From the NCBI GenBank assembly GCA_964106645.2, contig OZ067039.1: DNA of 64,000 nt; one strand, given 5' to 3'. Origin of the DNA: Podarcis pityusensis. Taxonomy: Eukaryota. Below the pieces are notes generated by a model, which had not been told where the DNA came from, searched no databases, and was given only the letters and a program-made list of their open reading frames with translations. Both the position numbers and the translations under genes were made by a program. Shown one piece after another: positions 1 through 55,162 of the stretch. Numbering within the stretch: the first letter of the stretch is position 1; the number at the start of each line of letters is the position of its first letter.

Positions 1-882
1 GACTCTGGCAAAGTGACCTGGCTGTTGGCAGAGATAGCATTTCCGGGCGCCTTTTCCCTCCTTCTTTCCCCCCTCACTGGGCTTTGAAACTGCGCGCGCG
101 CGCGCTGTTCCGATTTCCATCGGCTCTGCCGGCGGGAAAGTTGGCTCTGGAATGTCTGGAATGCGGAACTCCTTCCAACGTTCCCCCTTCCCTTCCCGCC
201 TCTCCAATGCTCTCGCCTCCTGGCGCGCTCCTATGGTCAGCGCTGATTTGGTCAGCTGGTCCATAGACTCCGCCCTGGGCGCCCGGGAAAGTTCGTCTTT
301 CACAGCCGAAGAAAGCCCTTCTTCAAAGAGCATTTGAATGGGTTCCGCCGATAGATCCCACCCCAATTTATGGATCAACATGGTGAACTCAGTCCAGTAC
401 TCACGGACAGATCGGCTCCCCTGTTTGCAAGCCATTAACTGTCTGCGGACCACTCCCTGTTCAATATCGCTGGAAAACATCAGATCCATGGCGCGAAAGA
501 ACTTCATCGTGTCCTTTAGGACGTCACTATTCGCTGCCATCAGGGGTCTAACCCAGTCTCTCGCCCCCTTTTCAAGATGCCCAATCACGAAAGCCACTCG
601 TGATTCCTCGTCAGGGAATTCATCAAACTGCAGATTGAGGGCATATTGCATCTCTGTCCGAAAGCCATGATAGTCTTTGGGCTCCCCCCCAAACTTCTGC
701 ACCAATCCTGGTACCTTTCTGACGAGCTGGGTGTCTTTCCCCTTTTTGTCTGCATCCTGAGCCCTCCTCTCCTCAAGCCTCGCCGTCTGCAGCGCTAGCT
801 GGACCTCCAACACCCGGTACCTTTCTTCCAGGCTTGGACCCGCTCCAGCTCCTGCTTCTCCGGTTCCGGCTGGGTTGCTCAT
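1..882 (-). CDS. gag: Gag protein (partial, 294 codons, no stop inside window)
   Basis: Manual translation from ATG at 882: MSNPAGTGEAG...KFGGEPKDYHGF...FPDEESRVAFVIGHLEKGARDW...CKQGSRSVREYWTEF...LFEEGLSSAVKDEL...EPMEIG...KCYLCQQPGHFARV. Shows retrotransposon capsid motifs (QGxxSVxEY, FxxGL), PMEIG and a CX2CX4H zinc knuckle cut by the edge. Missing from the ORF track because it has no stop in the window. Confidence 0.93.
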   Translation of the reverse strand, partial: MSNPAGTGEAGAGAGPSLEERYRVLEVQLALQTARLEERRAQDADKKGKDTQLVRKVPGLVQKFGGEPKDYHGFRTEMQYALNLQFDEFPDEESRVAFVIGHLEKGARDWVRPLMAANSDVLKDTMKFFRAMDLMFSSDIEQGVVRRQLMACKQGSRSVREYWTEFTMLIHKLGWDLSAEPIQMLFEEGLSSAVKDELSRAPRAESMDQLTKSALTIGARQEARALERREGKGERWKEFRIPDIPEPTFPPAEPMEIGTARARAVSKPSEGGKKEGKGARKCYLCQQPGHFARV

Positions 883-914
883 GATGCCTTCTCCTGCACA
901 AGCTGCTCACGAAG

Positions 915-925
915 ACTGTCGGAAT
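915..925 (-). promoter_or_regulatory. Putative self-priming primer-binding site (ATTCCGACAGT, element sense)
   Basis: Starts 2 nt after the 5' LTR, lacks the TGG of a tRNA PBS, and is the exact reverse complement of LTR positions 1046-1056. Confidence 0.7.
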
Positions 926-927
926 GC

Positions 928-1335
928 TGTGATGGGACGATGAGCTGCTTGTGTGTAAAATCCTAGTCCCTCAGAGTTTGGTCAAGTTTGCAAACCTCTG
1001 TCTGTAACGGAGCCCCTTAAACATGGCTCCGTCAGTCGCTGGCAGATTCCGACAGTGGTTGCTTTCGGAATCGCTTCCAACATAAAAGCTCCTTAACGGA
1101 AACACGTCTTCTGGACTCTCTGCGTGACAGTTTCCGGCGAGGAGTGGGTGTCCCTACAGGAGGTCCTGAAACCTCCCCACTGTTTTCGCTGGAAGTGTCT
1201 CTGAGCCATCCCTCCAGCTCCCTTTCCCTCAGCTCAGCTCCTCTCCCCCTACTGGTTCCCTCTTCAGCTGCTGAGTCTCTCCCAACCTGTGTGAGCCCTT
1301 TCACTTCCCTTCCTTCCGATGGCAGTTCCCTGACA
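928..1335 (-). repeat. 5' LTR, family A (408 bp)
   Basis: Sense TGTCAGGGAACTGCC...CCCATCACA; same length as the solo LTR at 33986-34393, with about 6 substitutions. Confidence 0.95.
1032..1334 (-). CDS. LTR-encoded reading frame (100 aa, no ATG; Arg-rich C-terminus)
   Basis: Open from LTR nt 2 (VRELPS...) to TGA; C-terminus conserved at amino-acid level in the diverged LTR at 26554-26883. Probably translated only in the 3' LTR context. Confidence 0.6.
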   Translation of the reverse strand, partial: VRELPSEGREVKGLTQVGRDSAAEEGTSRGRGAELRERELEGWLRDTSSENSGEVSGPPVGTPTPRRKLSRRESRRRVSVKELLCWKRFRKQPLSESASD

Positions 1336-5690: not shown

Positions 5691-5862
5691 ATATAATCCT
5701 CACAGAACTCTAGCCCAATGGTTGCCATTAATTTGATTTGAAATAATTTTATAATGAAATGATTTTAGAATGTTGTATTTGTTTTACTGTTGTTAGCTGC
5801 TCTGAGCCCGGCTTTGGCTGGGGAGGGCGGGATATAAATAAAATTTTATTATTATTATTATT

Positions 5863-6085
5863 AGGTACCACTGCTGTGGAAAGGTAAACGGCATTTCCAT
5901 GCGCTCTGACACTTGTCACGGTGTTCCGTTGCACCAGAAGCGGTTTAGTCATGCTGGCCACCTGACCTGGAAAGCTGTTTGTGGACAAATGCCGGCTCCC
6001 TTGGCCTGAAAGCAAGATGAGTGCCACACCCCATAGTCACCTTTGACTGGACTTAACTGTCTAGGGGTCCTTTGCCTTTTACCTT
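5863..6085 (+). mobile_element. 5'-truncated Sauria SINE adjoining the (TTA)n tail of a LINE 3' end (about 5789-5862)
   Basis: GGTAAACGGC...CATGCTGGCCAC core and degenerate ACCTTT tail; TTATT repeats on both sides. Confidence 0.75.
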
Positions 6086-6530
6086 ATTATTTACAACCAT
6101 GAGGTTGGGAGAAAAATGGGCAGTTGTTCATAGATGAATAAAAGCAAACAGTTGCAATGCATGATGAGTATCAACCAATACTAGAACATTAACAAAGCAT
6201 CAATGAAATACTTCCCAAAGTGCAAACCAGTTTTTCTTAATATTGTTATGATACTGCAGTGAATGGTGTTGGACGTTCTGAATACTGCAGCATTTGTGAT
6301 CAGAGTCTAAAGCAGGCTGGCTTCCCACAGAATTTTTTCCAGCTCCAGAATGGTTTTTAGCTGTGGCGATTGTAGAATGGTAAGCATTATTGTGTGAAAG
6401 GGCATCTACCTAGGAGCAAGTCAGGTATTGGACTTTGGAATAATTATGGAGTATACAACTTCAAGCCACCGTTGGAGCGATTTATTCAGGGTTTCCAATA
6501 CCATTTGCTGCAGGATAATCACTTTATTCT

Positions 6531-6895
6531 GGGACGCGGGTGGCGCTGTGGGTAAAAGCCTCAGCGCCTAGGGCTTGCCGGTCGAAAGGTCGGCAGTTTG
6601 AATCCCCGCGGTGGGGTGCGCTCCCGTTGCTCGGTCCCAGCGCCTGCCAACCTAGCAGTTCGAAAGCACCCCTGGGTGCAAGTAGATAAATAGGGACCGC
6701 TTACTGGCGGGAAGGTAAACGGCGTTTCCGTGTGCTGCGCTGGCTCGCCAGATGCGGCTTTGTCACGCTGGCCACGTGACCCGGAAGTGTCTCCGGACAG
6801 CGCTGGCCCCCGGACTCTTGAGTGAGATGGGCGCACAACCCTAGAGTCTGTCAAGACTGGCCCGTACGGGCAGGGGTACCTTTACCTTTACCTTT
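6531..6895 (+). mobile_element. Full-length Sauria SINE
   Basis: GGGACGCGGGTGGCGCTGTGG head with A/B boxes, (ACCTTT)n tail, TSD AATCACTTTATT. Confidence 0.92.
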
Positions 6896-13790: not shown

Positions 13791-13813
13791 AATGTGTCAA
13801 ATATATGCATAGG

Positions 13814-14164
13814 TAAAGGTAAAGGGACCCCTGACCATTAGGTCCAGTCGTGACCGACTCTGGGGTTGCGATGCTCATCTCGCTTTATTGGCCAAGGGAG
13901 CCGGCGCACAGCTTCCAGGTCATGTGGCCAGCATGACTAAGCCGCTTCTGGCGAACCAGAGCAGCGCACGGAAACGCCGTTTACCTTCCCTCCGGAGCGG
14001 TACCTATTTATCTACTTGCACTTTTTTGGCGTGCTTTCGAACTGCTAGGTTGGCAGGAGCAGGGACCGAGCAACGGGAGCTCACCCCATTGCTGGGATTC
14101 GAACTGCCGACCTTCTGATCGGCAAGTCCTAGGCTCTGTGGTTTAACCCACAGTGCCACCCCTC
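13814..14164 (-). mobile_element. Sauria SINE
   Basis: (AAAGGT)n tail at left, head at right, TSD ATATGCATAGG. Confidence 0.92.
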
Positions 14165-24073: not shown

Positions 24074-25056
24074 CAGTGGTGCCCCGCAAGACGAATGCCT
24101 CGCAAGACGGAAAACTCGCTAGATGAAAGGGTTTTCCGTTTTTTGAGCTGCTTCGCAAGACGAATTTCCCTATGGGCTTGCTTCGCAAGACGAAAACGTC
24201 TTGCAAGTTTGTTTCCTTTTTCTTAACACCGTTAATACAGTTGCGACTTGACTTCGAGGAGCAACTCATAGAACGCAGTGTACATAGTAGCCTTTTTTTG
24301 AGGTTTTTAAAGACTTTGGTGATTTTTGAAGCTTTTCCAAAACTTCTTTTGCAGCCATTTGGTAAGTTAAGCTTTTAAAACTTTTTTTGGGGGTTTTGGA
24401 TTTGGGGTTGGGGTGTTTGGAATTCAAGGACTTGGTGTTGGGGAGGGGTTTGCAAGAATCTGGAAGCTTGTGTGTTTTTTTCTGCATTTTTATGATTTTC
24501 TGTGACCATTGGGGCACTCTGCTGTTTTTTTAAAAAAATTCTGGATTTGAATTTCTGTGTGCTGGGTGGCTGGGGGAACAGTTGGGGAGGGGTTTGCAAG
24601 AATCTGGAAGCTTGTGGTTTTTTTTTCTGCATTTTTATGATTTTCTGTGACCATTGGGCCACTCTGCTGTTTTTTTTAAAAATTTCTGGATTTGAATTTC
24701 TGTGTGCTTGGTGGCTGGGGGAACAGTTGGGGAGGGGTTTGCAAGAATCTGGAAGCTTGTGTGTTTTTTTCTGCATTTTTATGATTTTCTGTGACCATTG
24801 GGCAACTCTGCTGTTTTTTTAAAAAAATTCTGGGTTTGAATTTTGAAATGCTCTTTACAGTATGTGTGACTTTAAAGAGCACTTAATAAACTCTTGTTGT
24901 ACCAAATTTGGCTTTGTTTGGACTTTTTTTGACCATAGGAACACATTAATTGATTTTCAATGCATTCCTATGGGAAACCGTGCTTCGCAAGACGAAAAAT
25001 TCGCTAGACGAAAAAATTCGTGGAATGAATTAATTTCGTCTTGCGAGGCACCACTG
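24074..25056. mobile_element. Non-autonomous Tc1/mariner-type element (983 bp)
   Basis: TIR CAGTGGTGCC(C/T)CGCAAGACGAA, TA TSD, repeated subterminal CGCAAGACG motifs. Confidence 0.9.
24438..24843. repeat. Tandem repeat, about 145-bp unit x 2.8, inside the transposon
   Basis: TTGGGGAGGGGTTTGCAAGAATCTGGAAGC recurs at 24438, 24582 and 24727. Confidence 0.92.
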
Positions 25057-26449: not shown

Positions 26450-26884
26450 TGTAATGGTTCTAGGGGTTGCTCGTGCGTAAGCCGGTGTAAACACCTGGCT
26501 GGGTTGCCTGAGTGAACCTTTTCTGTCCGGACAGCCACTCACCCGTGGCTGTCTCAATCGCTGGCAGAATCCGTCAGTGGGCGTTTCTTAAACTTCTTCC
26601 AGCAAAGAAGCTCTTTGACGCCTAGTCTCCTCCTACTCTCTCTGCGTGAAAGCCTTCTGCGCAAGGAGGGCGTAGGCAGCGGAGGACCTCTACTCTCCCC
26701 GCTGGTCCCCGGCAAGGAGTCATGGGACCGCCTTGCCGCTTCCCCCATCTGCCCCCCTTCTCCACTGGTGCTACGCTGATTCTCTTCCCCAGAAGATGGG
26801 CTGCCTCTCCCAATCCCGGGACGCTCTCTGGAATCCCTCTGGATTTTGCTCTCTCCCTCCGGCACTGATGGCAGTTCCCTGACA
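26450..26884 (-). mobile_element. Solo LTR, family B (435 bp), sister family of LTR A
   Basis: Sense TGTCAGGGAACTGCCATC...CCATTACA; 5-bp TSD CCTGG at 26445-26449 and 26885-26889. Confidence 0.92.
26554..26883 (-). CDS. LTR-encoded reading frame, family B (109 aa)
   Basis: VRELPS...PTPSLRRRLSRRESRRRLGVKELLCWKKFKKRPLTDSASD*, homologous to the family A frame. Confidence 0.55.
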   Translation of the reverse strand, partial: VRELPSVPEGESKIQRDSRERPGIGRGSPSSGEENQRSTSGEGGQMGEAARRSHDSLPGTSGESRGPPLPTPSLRRRLSRRESRRRLGVKELLCWKKFKKRPLTDSASD

Positions 26885-33985: not shown

Positions 33986-34393
33986 TGTCAGGGAACTGCC
34001 ATCGGAAGGAAGGGAGGTGAAAGGGCTCACACAGGTTGGGAGAGACTCAGCAGCTGAAGAGGGAACCAGTAGGGGGAGAGGAGGTGAGCTGAGGGAAAGT
34101 GAGCTGGAGGGATGGCTCAGAGACACTTCCAGCGAAAACAGTGGGGAGGTTTCAGGACTTCCTGTAGGGACACCCACTCCTCGCCGGAAACTGTCACGCA
34201 GAGAGTCCAGAAGACGTGTTTCCGTTAAGGAGCTTTTATGTTGGAAGCGATTCCGAAAGCAACCACTGTCGGAATCTGCCAGCGACTGACGGAGCCATGT
34301 TTAAGGGGCTCCGTTATAGACAGAGGTTTGCAAACTTGACCAAACTCTGAGGGACTTGGATTTTACACACAAGCAGCTCATCGTCCCATCACA
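33986..34393 (+). mobile_element. Solo LTR, family A (408 bp)
   Basis: TG...CA termini; 5-bp TSD CTGGG at 33981-33985 and 34394-34398; near-identical to 928-1335. Confidence 0.95.
33987..34289 (+). CDS. LTR-encoded reading frame, family A (100 aa)
   Basis: VRELPSEGRE...PTPRRKLSRRESRRRVSVKELLCWKRFRKQPLSESASD*. Confidence 0.55.
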   Translation, partial: VRELPSEGREVKGLTQVGRDSAAEEGTSRGRGGELRESELEGWLRDTSSENSGEVSGLPVGTPTPRRKLSRRESRRRVSVKELLCWKRFRKQPLSESASD

Positions 34394-35618: not shown

Positions 35619-35999
35619 GGGACGCGGGTGGTGCTGTGTTTTAAACCACTGAGCCTCTTGAGCTTGCCAATTGGAAGGTCAGTGGTTCGAACCCGTGCAA
35701 CGGGGTGAGCTCCTGTTGTCCTGTCTCAGCTTCTGCCAACCTAGCAGTTTGAAAGCATACCAGTGCAAGTAGATAAATATGTACCACTGCGATGAGAAAA
35801 ACGGTGTTTCTGTGCGCTCTGGCTTCCATCACGGTGTCTCGTTGCACCAGTAGTGGTTTAGTCCTGCTGGCCACATGACCTGGAAAGCTGTCTGTGGACA
35901 AACACCAGCTCCCTTGGCCTGAAGCAAGATGAGTGCCACACCCCATAGTCACCTTTGGACTTAATTGTCCAGGAGTTCTTTACCTTTACATTTATTACC
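35619..35999 (+). mobile_element. Sauria SINE (different, more diverged subfamily)
   Basis: GGGACGCGGGTGG head, degenerate ACCTTT tail, TSD TAAAACTCACAC (35592-35603 / 36000-36011). Confidence 0.9.
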
Positions 36000-37623
36000 T
36001 AAAACTCACACACCACAGAATTATGCTGAGAGGAAGTGAGCATTGCCAGAGAGGAGGAGGAGGGGTTACACTGAGGACCCCTTGAGCAACAGTCCCCCAA
36101 AACTGGACATGAGACTGATAGAGGTTGCTTCAACACTGCTCTTGGATGTACATTTGGAGTAATGTGAGACGTTTCGGTCTATGTGGGTGGAACAAGCACT
36201 CTTGTTTTTCCCTGCGTCTGTAGCAACTTTCTGGGAAGTAAGGTAATGTCTACTTTCAGGAACTAGGTTAAGCCTAGAGTGGTGTAGGCTGCATTGCAGT
36301 GTTTTATAGCATCACCCTCGCTGTTGGGCTGCCATCTTAAAAGTGTCTTGGGAAGTCCTACTTGCTGAGACATCATTCACCACATTTGAGAGTTTGTGTA
36401 GCTTCGCTAATGGGGGGTCATGCACAAACGGCTCTGGTAAATACTTGGCAAAGAAATAGCTCTCCCTTCTATTCTTCAGGGCTAATAACACAGGGAATTG
36501 TTTAAGAAGGTGGATGAGATATGTCTTCACTAAATATTGATTGAAGAGCCCACAATATTTGCTTCTTTTACTTCTGCACAGCTTAAGGTGTGTGCTTGTT
36601 TGCAAATGGAGGGATCAGGTCCCCGGAGTCCTGTTATTTGTAAAGGGAACAATGCTCTTCCCGTGAGATTTCACAGGAATTAGAACAGCTCATTTACACT
36701 TGTCGGAAACCTCCCAGGAAGTGTATTTGGCCATGTGTGAGTACAGCCACTCAAGGGCAATTCCTTCTTTAGAGTTAGCTATGCACGCTTCAGTAATGAG
36801 GTGCGAATTAGCACTATTGCTGACATCTTTACTGCATCCTTCAGGACCTGGACACTTGTATATCATTCAGAGCCTTCCATCCTCAGTCACAAAATTGGAG
36901 TTCTGCATATACTTGACATCATAAACAATATTTCAGGGGATATGAGGCATGTGTTGTAGTCAGGCACATTGAATTAACTGTCAACAGACTTCTTTAGCTT
37001 TCAGGCTATAACATCTATTTGGCCTAGGAGAAAACCTGGGGTAGGCCTGGTTCAAGACCTCTGCCAGTGAACCATACAGAATCCTGTTTAACAAAACAAA
37101 TTAAGCCTGCAATTCTATGCATGAGTGTTCAGCAACCTGGTACCCTCCAACTGTAGTCCATAGCAGGGGCTAATGGGAGTTGTAGTCCAAAACTTCTAGA
37201 AAGCACCAGGGAGTTCTAGAACACCATGAGGTTCTAGAATGCACTGATGGGCGTTGCAGTCCAGAGCTCCTAGAGCGCGCCAGCTGGGGACGGTTGCTTT
37301 GTACACCAACTTGTAAGCCCCATTGAATTTAATGGGACTAATTTATGAAGAAGCTTGCATAGGATTATTTTGCTACTTATGAACACGTGTGTGGAGCCTG
37401 AATTTCATGGTTAAGGTTCCACATACAACACAAGGCAAGCATAAGTTATTGATATCTAGTATGGTATGGTGTCCTCTCTCACAGTAATGTAGATGGAATA
37501 GATGCAAAGATGGCACAGAAGTCAAGTGTGTGTTTGTGCGGAGTGTATTTCCCCCAGATCAAGCAGGGAAAGAAGAAAATGAAAAGGAGTATGCTGCATT
37601 TCTCTGAAAACTTTGGTTGTTTG

Positions 37624-40560: not shown

Positions 40561-40917
40561 AAGGTAAAGGTAAAGGGACCCCTGACCATTAGGTGCAGTC
40601 GTGGCTGACTCTGGGGTTGCGGCGCTCATATCGCTTTATTGGCCAAGGGAGCCAGCGTGCAGCTTCTGGGTCATGTGGCCAGCATGACTAAGCCGTTTCT
40701 GGCGAACCAGGGCAGCGCACGGAAACGCCGTTTACCTTCCCGCTGGAGCGGTACCTATTTATCTACTTGCACTTTGACATGCTTTAGAACTGCTAGGTAG
40801 GCAGGAGCAGGGACCGAGCAATGGGAGCTCACCCCATCGTGGGGATTCGAACCGCCGATCTTCTGATAGGCAAGCCCTAGGCTCTGTGGTTTAACCCACA
40901 GCGCCATCCATGTCCCC
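40561..40917 (-). mobile_element. Sauria SINE nested in the hAT MITE
   Basis: (AAAGGT)n tail, TSD AAGAAGTATA. Confidence 0.9.
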
Positions 40918-44375: not shown

Positions 44376-44744
44376 GGGACACGGGTGGCGCTGTGGGTAA
44401 AACCTCAAGTGCCTAGGACTTGCTGATCGCATGGTCGGCGGTTTGAATCCCCGCGGCGGGGTGAGCTCCCGTTGTTTCGGTCCCAGGTCCTGCCCACCTA
44501 GCAGTTCGAAAGCACCCTTAAGTGCAAGTAGATAAATAGGTACCGCTTTATAGCGGGAAGGTAAACGGCGTTTCTGTGTGCTGCGCTGGTGCTGGCTCGC
44601 CAGCTGCAGCTTCGTCACGCTGGCCACGTGACCCGGAAATGTCTTCAGATGGCGCTGGCTCACGGCCTCTTGAGCGAGATGAGCACGCAACCCTAGAGTC
44701 GGACACGACTGGCCCGTACGGGCAGGGGTACCTTTACCTTTACC
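44376..44744 (+). mobile_element. Full-length Sauria SINE
   Basis: Head, core and (ACCTTT)n tail; TSD TATCCATTGATATA. Confidence 0.92.
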
Positions 44745-44763
44745 TATCCATTGATATAAAGTA

Positions 44764-54814: not shown

Positions 54815-55162
54815 GGGACGTGGGTGGCACTGTGGGTTAAACCACAAAGCCTAGGACTTGCCGATCAGAAGGTCAGCGGTTCGAATCCCTGTGGCGGGGT
54901 GAGCTCCTGCTAACCTAGCAGTTCAAAAGCACGTCAAAGTGCAAGTAGATAAATAGGTACTGCTCTGGCGGGAAGGTAAACGGCGTTTCCGTGCACTGCT
55001 CTGGTTTGCCAGAAGCGGCTTAGTCATGCTGGCCACATGACCTGGAAGCTGTACGCCGGCTCCCTCGGCCAATAAAGCGAGATGAGCGCCACAACCCCAG
55101 AGTCGTTCACGACTGGACCTAAAGGTCAGGGGTCCCTTTACCTTTACCTTTACCTTTACCTT
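54815..55162 (+). mobile_element. Sauria SINE with a small internal deletion
   Basis: Head, (ACCTTT)n tail, TSD TACAGGATGCATA. Confidence 0.92.

Follow-up and report, generated by a model that had tools for sequence, protein, structure and literature searches.

Self-priming of reverse transcription has been reported for chromoviruses of fungi and vertebrates (passages of PMC6317226, PMC4600332 and bioRxiv 10.1101/2022.12.06.519325). In Tf1 and Tf2 of Schizosaccharomyces pombe and in Tj1 of S. japonicus, for example, an 11-base primer-binding site (PBS) complements a stretch of the LTR and no tRNA is used, the integrase carries a chromodomain, and further duplexes join PBS-adjacent sequence to the LTR (parts of bioRxiv 10.1101/2022.12.06.519325 and PMC7175516). 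The start site and the RNase H cut of Tf1 have been demonstrated experimentally (according to passages of PMC7175516 and PMC4600332), and the element is described as needing a three-duplex 'pretzel', made up of the primer:PBS helix and two PBS-adjacent/LTR duplexes (bioRxiv 10.1101/2022.12.06.519325, in part). For vertebrate Tf1/sushi elements, self-priming was proposed in 2001 (Butler et al. 2001, as cited in passages of PMC6317226 and PMC4600332), and the citing passages, relying on that study, use the words 'described' or 'implicated'. The mechanism is already described for the Tf1/sushi group, and our core result is one that a specialist would expect; experimental proof comes from fission yeast, and the lizard family considered here is young and abundant. 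A listing-level literature search, with subscription papers outside its scope, turned up no work on lizard self-priming, nor on primers that overlap integrase codons.

The lizard element resembles Tf1, Tf2 and Tj1 in its 11-base self-complementary PBS, its chromodomain integrase and, by prediction, its flanking duplexes, and it shares with vertebrate Tf1/sushi elements a vertebrate host, the chromovirus domain order and the self-primer signature. It differs from the yeast elements in that gag and pol are separate overlapping frames, pol continues through U3 over the primer, and its families A and B lack a clear TATA box; the start site and RNase H cut, demonstrated in Tf1, are assigned in the lizard element by analogy. 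If self-primed, such elements would be independent of host tRNAs for priming.

The element and its relatives

A young Ty3/gypsy chromovirus has its 5' end in the window, a 64,000-nucleotide stretch of Podarcis pityusensis DNA (GCA_964106645.2, contig OZ067039.1), where it lies on the minus strand; the remainder of the element (L031) adjoins the window. The whole element measures 5421 bp. Its 5' LTR (928..1335, minus strand; family A) is 408 bp long, has the form TG...CA and is identical at 408/408 positions to the 3' LTR beyond the window, which is preceded by a purine-rich tract; the target-site duplication is CATAC. The gag frame (1..882, minus strand; ATG at 882-880) encodes a Retrotrans_gag domain and a CCHC knuckle and runs off the window, and in these lizard elements it overlaps pol as a separate frame. 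The Pfam domains recognized are Retrotrans_gag, zf-CCHC, RVT_1, RT_RNaseH, Integrase_H2C2, rve, SH3_Tf2-1 and Chromo (4e-10). Their order, gag, PR, RT, RH and IN with a C-terminal chromodomain, is that of Ty3/gypsy chromoviruses, and the best PDB match to the RT of the family A element is Ty3 RT. PR-RT is inverted in L031 only, the other copies having the usual layout.

Two solo LTRs lie further along the window. One belongs to family A (33986..34393, plus strand), is 98.5% identical, has the duplication CTGGG and has no PBS behind it; the other belongs to family B (26450..26884, minus strand) and has the duplication CCAGG.

Among the matches listed for the integrase, the named relatives come from wall lizard (54%), frogs, fish, fungi and algae, and are chromodomain elements. 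An integrase-core tree of 32 sequences (27 chosen among 120 matches listed, plus five from this genome, with Tf1, sushi-ichi and the named V-clade elements outside the set) places families A, B and C with squamate matches among fungal and vertebrate sequences and away from two plant matches, with weak deep nodes. Domains and tree fit the chromoviruses of fungi and vertebrates, as far as sequence comparison goes, and the lizard element very probably belongs to the Tf1/sushi group.

Pairing of primer and PBS, its covariation and predicted structure

The initial annotation had read a Tf1-like self-priming signature from an 11-mer behind the LTR that is the exact complement of a stretch inside it, and the letters bear this out. 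The sequence after the LTR is GC followed by the PBS ATTCCGACAGT (915..925, minus strand), without the TGG whose absence had also been pointed out, and the PBS pairs at 11/11 positions (925-915 with 1056-1046) with the predicted self-primer ACTGTCGGAAT (1046..1056, minus strand; LTR nt 280-290), which would make up nucleotides 1-11 of the RNA. When the LTR was shuffled by dinucleotides and the post-LTR sequence held fixed, an 11-nt complement arose in 0/3000 shuffles, the best being 10 nt, in 6/3000. The PBS thus shows the 10-11 nt of complementarity to its own 5' LTR that characterizes the Tf1/sushi group. A primer built by splicing is not needed, since the 11-mer is contiguous in the LTR.

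The comparison of the PBS with the tRNA set of the species, which had been suggested as a check, returned no match. An Rfam tRNA search scored 63 candidates, and 50 fetched regions yielded a partial set, 38 unique tRNA genes that cover 18 anticodon types, within which the best match of a tRNA 3' end to the PBS was 1-2 nt and the best internal run 5-6 nt. Because TGG is absent, no mature tRNA 3' end fits the PBS, and a genome-wide search for either 11-mer in the 30 nt upstream of T-loop motifs gave 0 matches. A PBS lacking complementarity to tRNA 3' ends (38 tRNAs and the T-loop search) is again as expected for the Tf1/sushi group. It could still be argued that a host tRNA, a tRNA half or another small RNA primes and that the self-complementarity is incidental, the more so as the direct comparison covered tRNAs alone among small RNAs. 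A fixed host RNA, however, cannot account for the PBS variants, at least five in number, each of which follows its own LTR, and together with the missing TGG, the short internal runs and the empty T-loop search this makes a host primer extremely unlikely.

Further evidence comes from covariation across the 1.5-Gb genome. The family B LTR was said to differ at the primer site, and ACTGACGGATT indeed stands at 26578-26568 of the solo LTR; it had been predicted that the family B PBS should co-vary, and family B junctions carry AATCCGTCAGT. Exact patterns matched 1284 junctions with an A primer and an A PBS (spacer 112-128) and 401 with a B primer and the AATCCGTCAGT PBS (spacer 115-125), with 0 crossed A/B pairs genome-wide (spacer 115-125); these are counts of LTR-PBS junctions, not of intact elements. 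Allowing any base at positions 5 and 10 of both primer and PBS gave 1698 junctions in all, so that at most 13 are neither A-A nor B-B, and reversed-pattern controls gave 0 matches genome-wide. The difference between A and B represents a single evolutionary event at two positions.

Position 4 provides additional changes. A base other than G on either side occurs at 17 loci, 8 of which are changed on both sides with perfect pairing (five C-G, three A-U) and 9 on one side only, uncompensated. In an LTR tree with the primer masked, the compensated copies fall into at least three separate clades (L078/L079, L084/L091 and L085); the tree leaves out five loci in which no LTR start was found, including the compensated L080, L082 and L083. 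The changes 918 G>T and 1053 C>A each predominate in unphased contigs from another organism; together they would make one more compensated variant. A second organism's contigs show the 918 change alone, in one contig. The region is also spanned by contigs from presumed RNA runs, which give no strand, level or start of transcription. Four probable DNA runs from other organisms had no variant at or above 5% inside either 11-mer while their flanks vary, a weak indication from unphased contigs.

A sample of family B was chosen by flanking motifs only. These motifs gave 453 matches; 90 were fetched among the 100 listed (three non-element rows and the last seven rows being excluded), and one further non-element was dropped to leave 89 elements. 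The primer:PBS duplex is perfect in 66/89 copies, deviates by G-U only in 11/89 and has one mismatch in 12/89. Eighteen primers are non-standard, four of them fully compensated and 14 uncompensated. The deviations cluster at CpG (10 of the 14), and the uncompensated changes, here and at 9 of the position-4 loci, would most plausibly represent decay after insertion. In our view, some 1,700 LTR-PBS junctions with repeated compensatory changes amount to strong comparative support, at the level of sequence, for self-priming in a vertebrate genome.

A more distant family, C, was retrieved by a gag-family search, and its integrase core is about 55% identical to that of family A. In the survey for paired LTRs, 5/18 regions lacked an LTR pair. 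Among five copies with paired LTRs, two have a perfect 10-bp self-pair, GCGGGAGCAA with TTGCTCCCGC, and in three the self-pair has decayed (best match 6-7 nt). The PBS begins 2 nt past the LTR in families A, B and C.

The pairing may also be viewed in the context of a larger predicted structure. RNAalifold was applied to 33 aligned A and B sequences, some of them picked by their primer patterns, with position-4 variants over-represented; it recovers the primer:PBS helix, a 3-bp CUG:CAG extension and a hairpin. The CUG directly follows the primer (1043..1045, minus strand) and is predicted to pair with CAG at 929-927 past one bulged C; the duplex upstream of the PBS, 3 bp long, is almost invariant and shows no compensation. 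The predicted hairpin after the primer (1005..1034, minus strand) begins at the pol stop codon, and 3/8 of its pairs are changed on both sides. A U5-leader helix is predicted between a U5 arm at 944..954 and a leader arm at 896..906, 9 nt past the PBS (both minus strand). It crosses the primer:PBS helix and was named by eye, since neither RNAalifold nor single-sequence folds can display it; it is 92% paired, with 3/11 pairs changed on both sides. The whole predicted structure is 95% paired, as against 24-36% in slid controls, and its covariation score was reached by 0/500 shuffles, a control that ignores relatedness. As modelled, the U5-leader helix fits the Tf1 'pretzel'.

Covariation demonstrates pairing rather than priming, and in so highly structured a region the pairing might serve another job, such as hiding the PBS, dimerization, packaging or translation control, with something else acting as primer. 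We regard this as very unlikely, given that the paired stretch lies exactly at the primer position, 2 nt past the LTR in all three families, that its length of 11 (10 in family C) matches Tf1, and that no further primer candidate was found.

Predicted RNA start and the overlap with pol

We consider it highly probable that this young, chromodomain-bearing Ty3/gypsy element primes reverse transcription in the manner of Tf1, with its own RNA end. The initial annotation had arrived at the same reading, which now finds support in the family B covariation that it predicted, in the lack of a tRNA match within the set examined and in the coding overlap; the pairing, its position, its repeated compensation and, in the alignments, covariation in the predicted U5-leader helix are likewise direct observations. 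By analogy with Tf1, RNA polymerase II would start at the A at 1056, RNA bases 1-11 would pair back onto the PBS as part of a pretzel-like structure, RNase H would cut between bases 11 and 12, and the freed 3' end of the 11-mer would prime minus-strand DNA.

When LTR elements in general replicate, copying of the primer into the plus strand overwrites the PBS. Plus-strand synthesis would here transfer the primer sequence back to the PBS in the same way, so that a change in the primer would appear in the PBS after one or two generations; co-change of this kind would equally be expected from selection on pairing. The 3' R copy would supply the 11 bases of new LTRs, and as the integrase tail is encoded there too, those bases would answer to both pairing and coding.

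The promoter is less clear. The initial annotation had noted TTTTATG upstream of the 11-mer as a TATA-like motif. The motif is present (1081..1087, minus strand; 1087-1081 in the direction of transcription) and starts 31 nt upstream of the 11-mer as described, but its role as a TATA box is unsupported. It varies in family B, as had been cautioned, where TTTTATG, CTCTTATG, TTTTGTG and TTCTTTG occur, and its letters are read as Leu-Leu-Cys in the pol tail. A convincing TATA box is absent from families A and B. At the first base of the primer there is a C-A step, and its context in family B, CCCACT, fits the BBCA+1BW initiator consensus (given in a passage of PMC5287114), which the family A context misses at -3; this initiator fit may be taken as weak evidence. 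In family C, GATAAA lies about 30 nt upstream of the self-pair in most of 30 loci where a motif search found the self-pair, and this spacing is perhaps the best sign, albeit an indirect one, that the self-pair marks the RNA start.

These observations also bear on the possibility that the 11-mer primes without being the RNA start. Transcription might begin upstream, in U3 or by read-through from tandem copies or host genes, with a primer that is excised at both ends or that another RNA provides. The missing TATA box in A and B, a promoter region that codes for protein and the head-to-tail spacing of elements at about 5.2 kb (e.g. C2:1535935, 1541116, 1546296) would all suit such a scheme. Against it stand pairing that ends exactly at +1 in 89/89 family B copies (in direct register, 0/89 pair at -1, 1/89 at -2, 1/89 at -3 and 2/89 at +12), a C-A step at +1 that is invariant despite a fourfold-degenerate codon position, the GATAAA spacing in family C and the Tf1 precedent. 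An upstream start thus appears unlikely, and a start at the first primer base is the reading that we prefer.

The overlap of the primer with codons P-L-S-E-S, proposed in the initial annotation as a dual function, was confirmed, and its 'LTR frame' turned out to be pol's C terminus, translated from the 3' LTR. pol passes through U3, and its stop lies four codons past the 11-mer. In the window the corresponding U3-to-R frame (1032..1335, minus strand; TGA stop at 1034-1032) equals the last 100 pol codons and is translatable from the 3' LTR copy only; pol ends ...P-L-S-E-S-A-S-D-stop, 301 nt into the 3' LTR in family A and about 328 nt in family B. The frame offset of the primer is constant in 27/31 LTRs, across offsets of 279-309 nt, and the pol-tail frame is stop-free in 28/31. 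Primer changes from A to B are conservative at the protein level (S to T, E to D), and those at position 4 are silent. In the 89 family B copies, third-codon sites inside the primer vary in 0-4 copies and five outside it in 22-44, although third positions -3, -6 and -9 upstream of the primer are also nearly invariant; with related copies and some fixed upstream positions, this contrast is not a formal test. In family C the pol stop precedes the GATAAA box, and the primer is therefore noncoding.

A frame that extends into the 3' LTR is also known from plant CRM group A chromoviruses (PMC3059260, in the part consulted). There the LTR encodes the CR motif, whereas in the lizard element the Pfam chromodomain comes before the LTR, with a separate tail behind the domain. 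A tRNA-type PBS is reported for the plant chromovirus clades apart from Tcn1 (a passage of PMC6317226), so no primer/coding overlap would be expected in CRM group A.

The 3' end of the RNA presents a further difference. AATAAA or ATTAAA occurs in 0/13 3' LTRs of families A, B and C (L094-L096, L098, L101, L103-L106 and L108-L111; one partly aligned), whereas a clear AATAAA stands close to the 3' end in Sushi LTRs, which are mostly from zebrafish (according to a passage of PMC3601003). No poly(A) signal was found in these LTRs that would define R. Because pol ends inside the 3' LTR, the element RNA must extend past +25, in LTRs that lack both of these signals.

It is tempting to speculate that one 11-base stretch serves as transcription start, reverse transcription primer and integrase coding sequence at once, in an element whose promoter is itself protein-coding and whose LTR does without a canonical poly(A) signal, and that rare copies record the steps of primer/PBS co-change (a mismatch or G-U, then full compensation). 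Perhaps this is the first vertebrate family set in which the evolution of self-priming can be watched. We offer this combined proposal tentatively, as a possibility of nearly even standing.

Rearranged copies, coding variants and other repeats

L031 is rearranged despite its identical LTRs and intact duplication. At element positions of about 1507-2860 (G000:C2:39616.5-39617.8 kb, just outside the window) it contains 101 nt that match a host ankyrin-repeat exon exactly; their source lies near G000:C13 position 9642490 and is, we presume, an ANKHD1/ANKRD17-like exon. Two inverted PR-RT pieces are also present, the junctions have short shared letters, and 26 other copies read without rearrangement at that junction. 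The arrangement resembles the outcome of a template switch to host RNA in the course of reverse transcription; that RNA may be an mRNA, but the inserted piece lies inside one exon, which leaves this short of proof.

Other copies vary in their coding layout. L110 and L111 are internally deleted copies of about 3 kb whose LTRs are 98.6-99.3% identical and whose long open frame has the pol tail at its end; they are possible non-autonomous derivatives. Family C occurs with a single 1623-codon frame (L095) and in a two-frame gag/pol form (L094). The U3-encoded pol tail of both these copies contains PRRSARL, and in families A and B an arginine-rich stretch occupies a comparable position; on sequence likeness, we take PRRSARL to resemble the nucleosome acidic-patch motif of HMGN proteins. 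LTR-PBS junctions that repeat at about one element length, at the three C2 positions named above (G000) and at C1:33936955 and 33941760, suggest head-to-tail arrays sharing LTRs.

Sites at 13811, 40562, 55149, 6531, 44376 and 35619 of the window were considered as family B candidates and rejected, as they belong to an unrelated short repeat. This 350-bp repeat, presumably a Sauria SINE by its resemblance, has no relation to the LTRs and occupies window positions 5862-6893, 13811-14161, 35619-36000, 40562-40916, 44376-44745 and 54815-55152. In addition, units of about 144 bp are repeated in tandem at 24437-24843, the copies being 95-97% alike.
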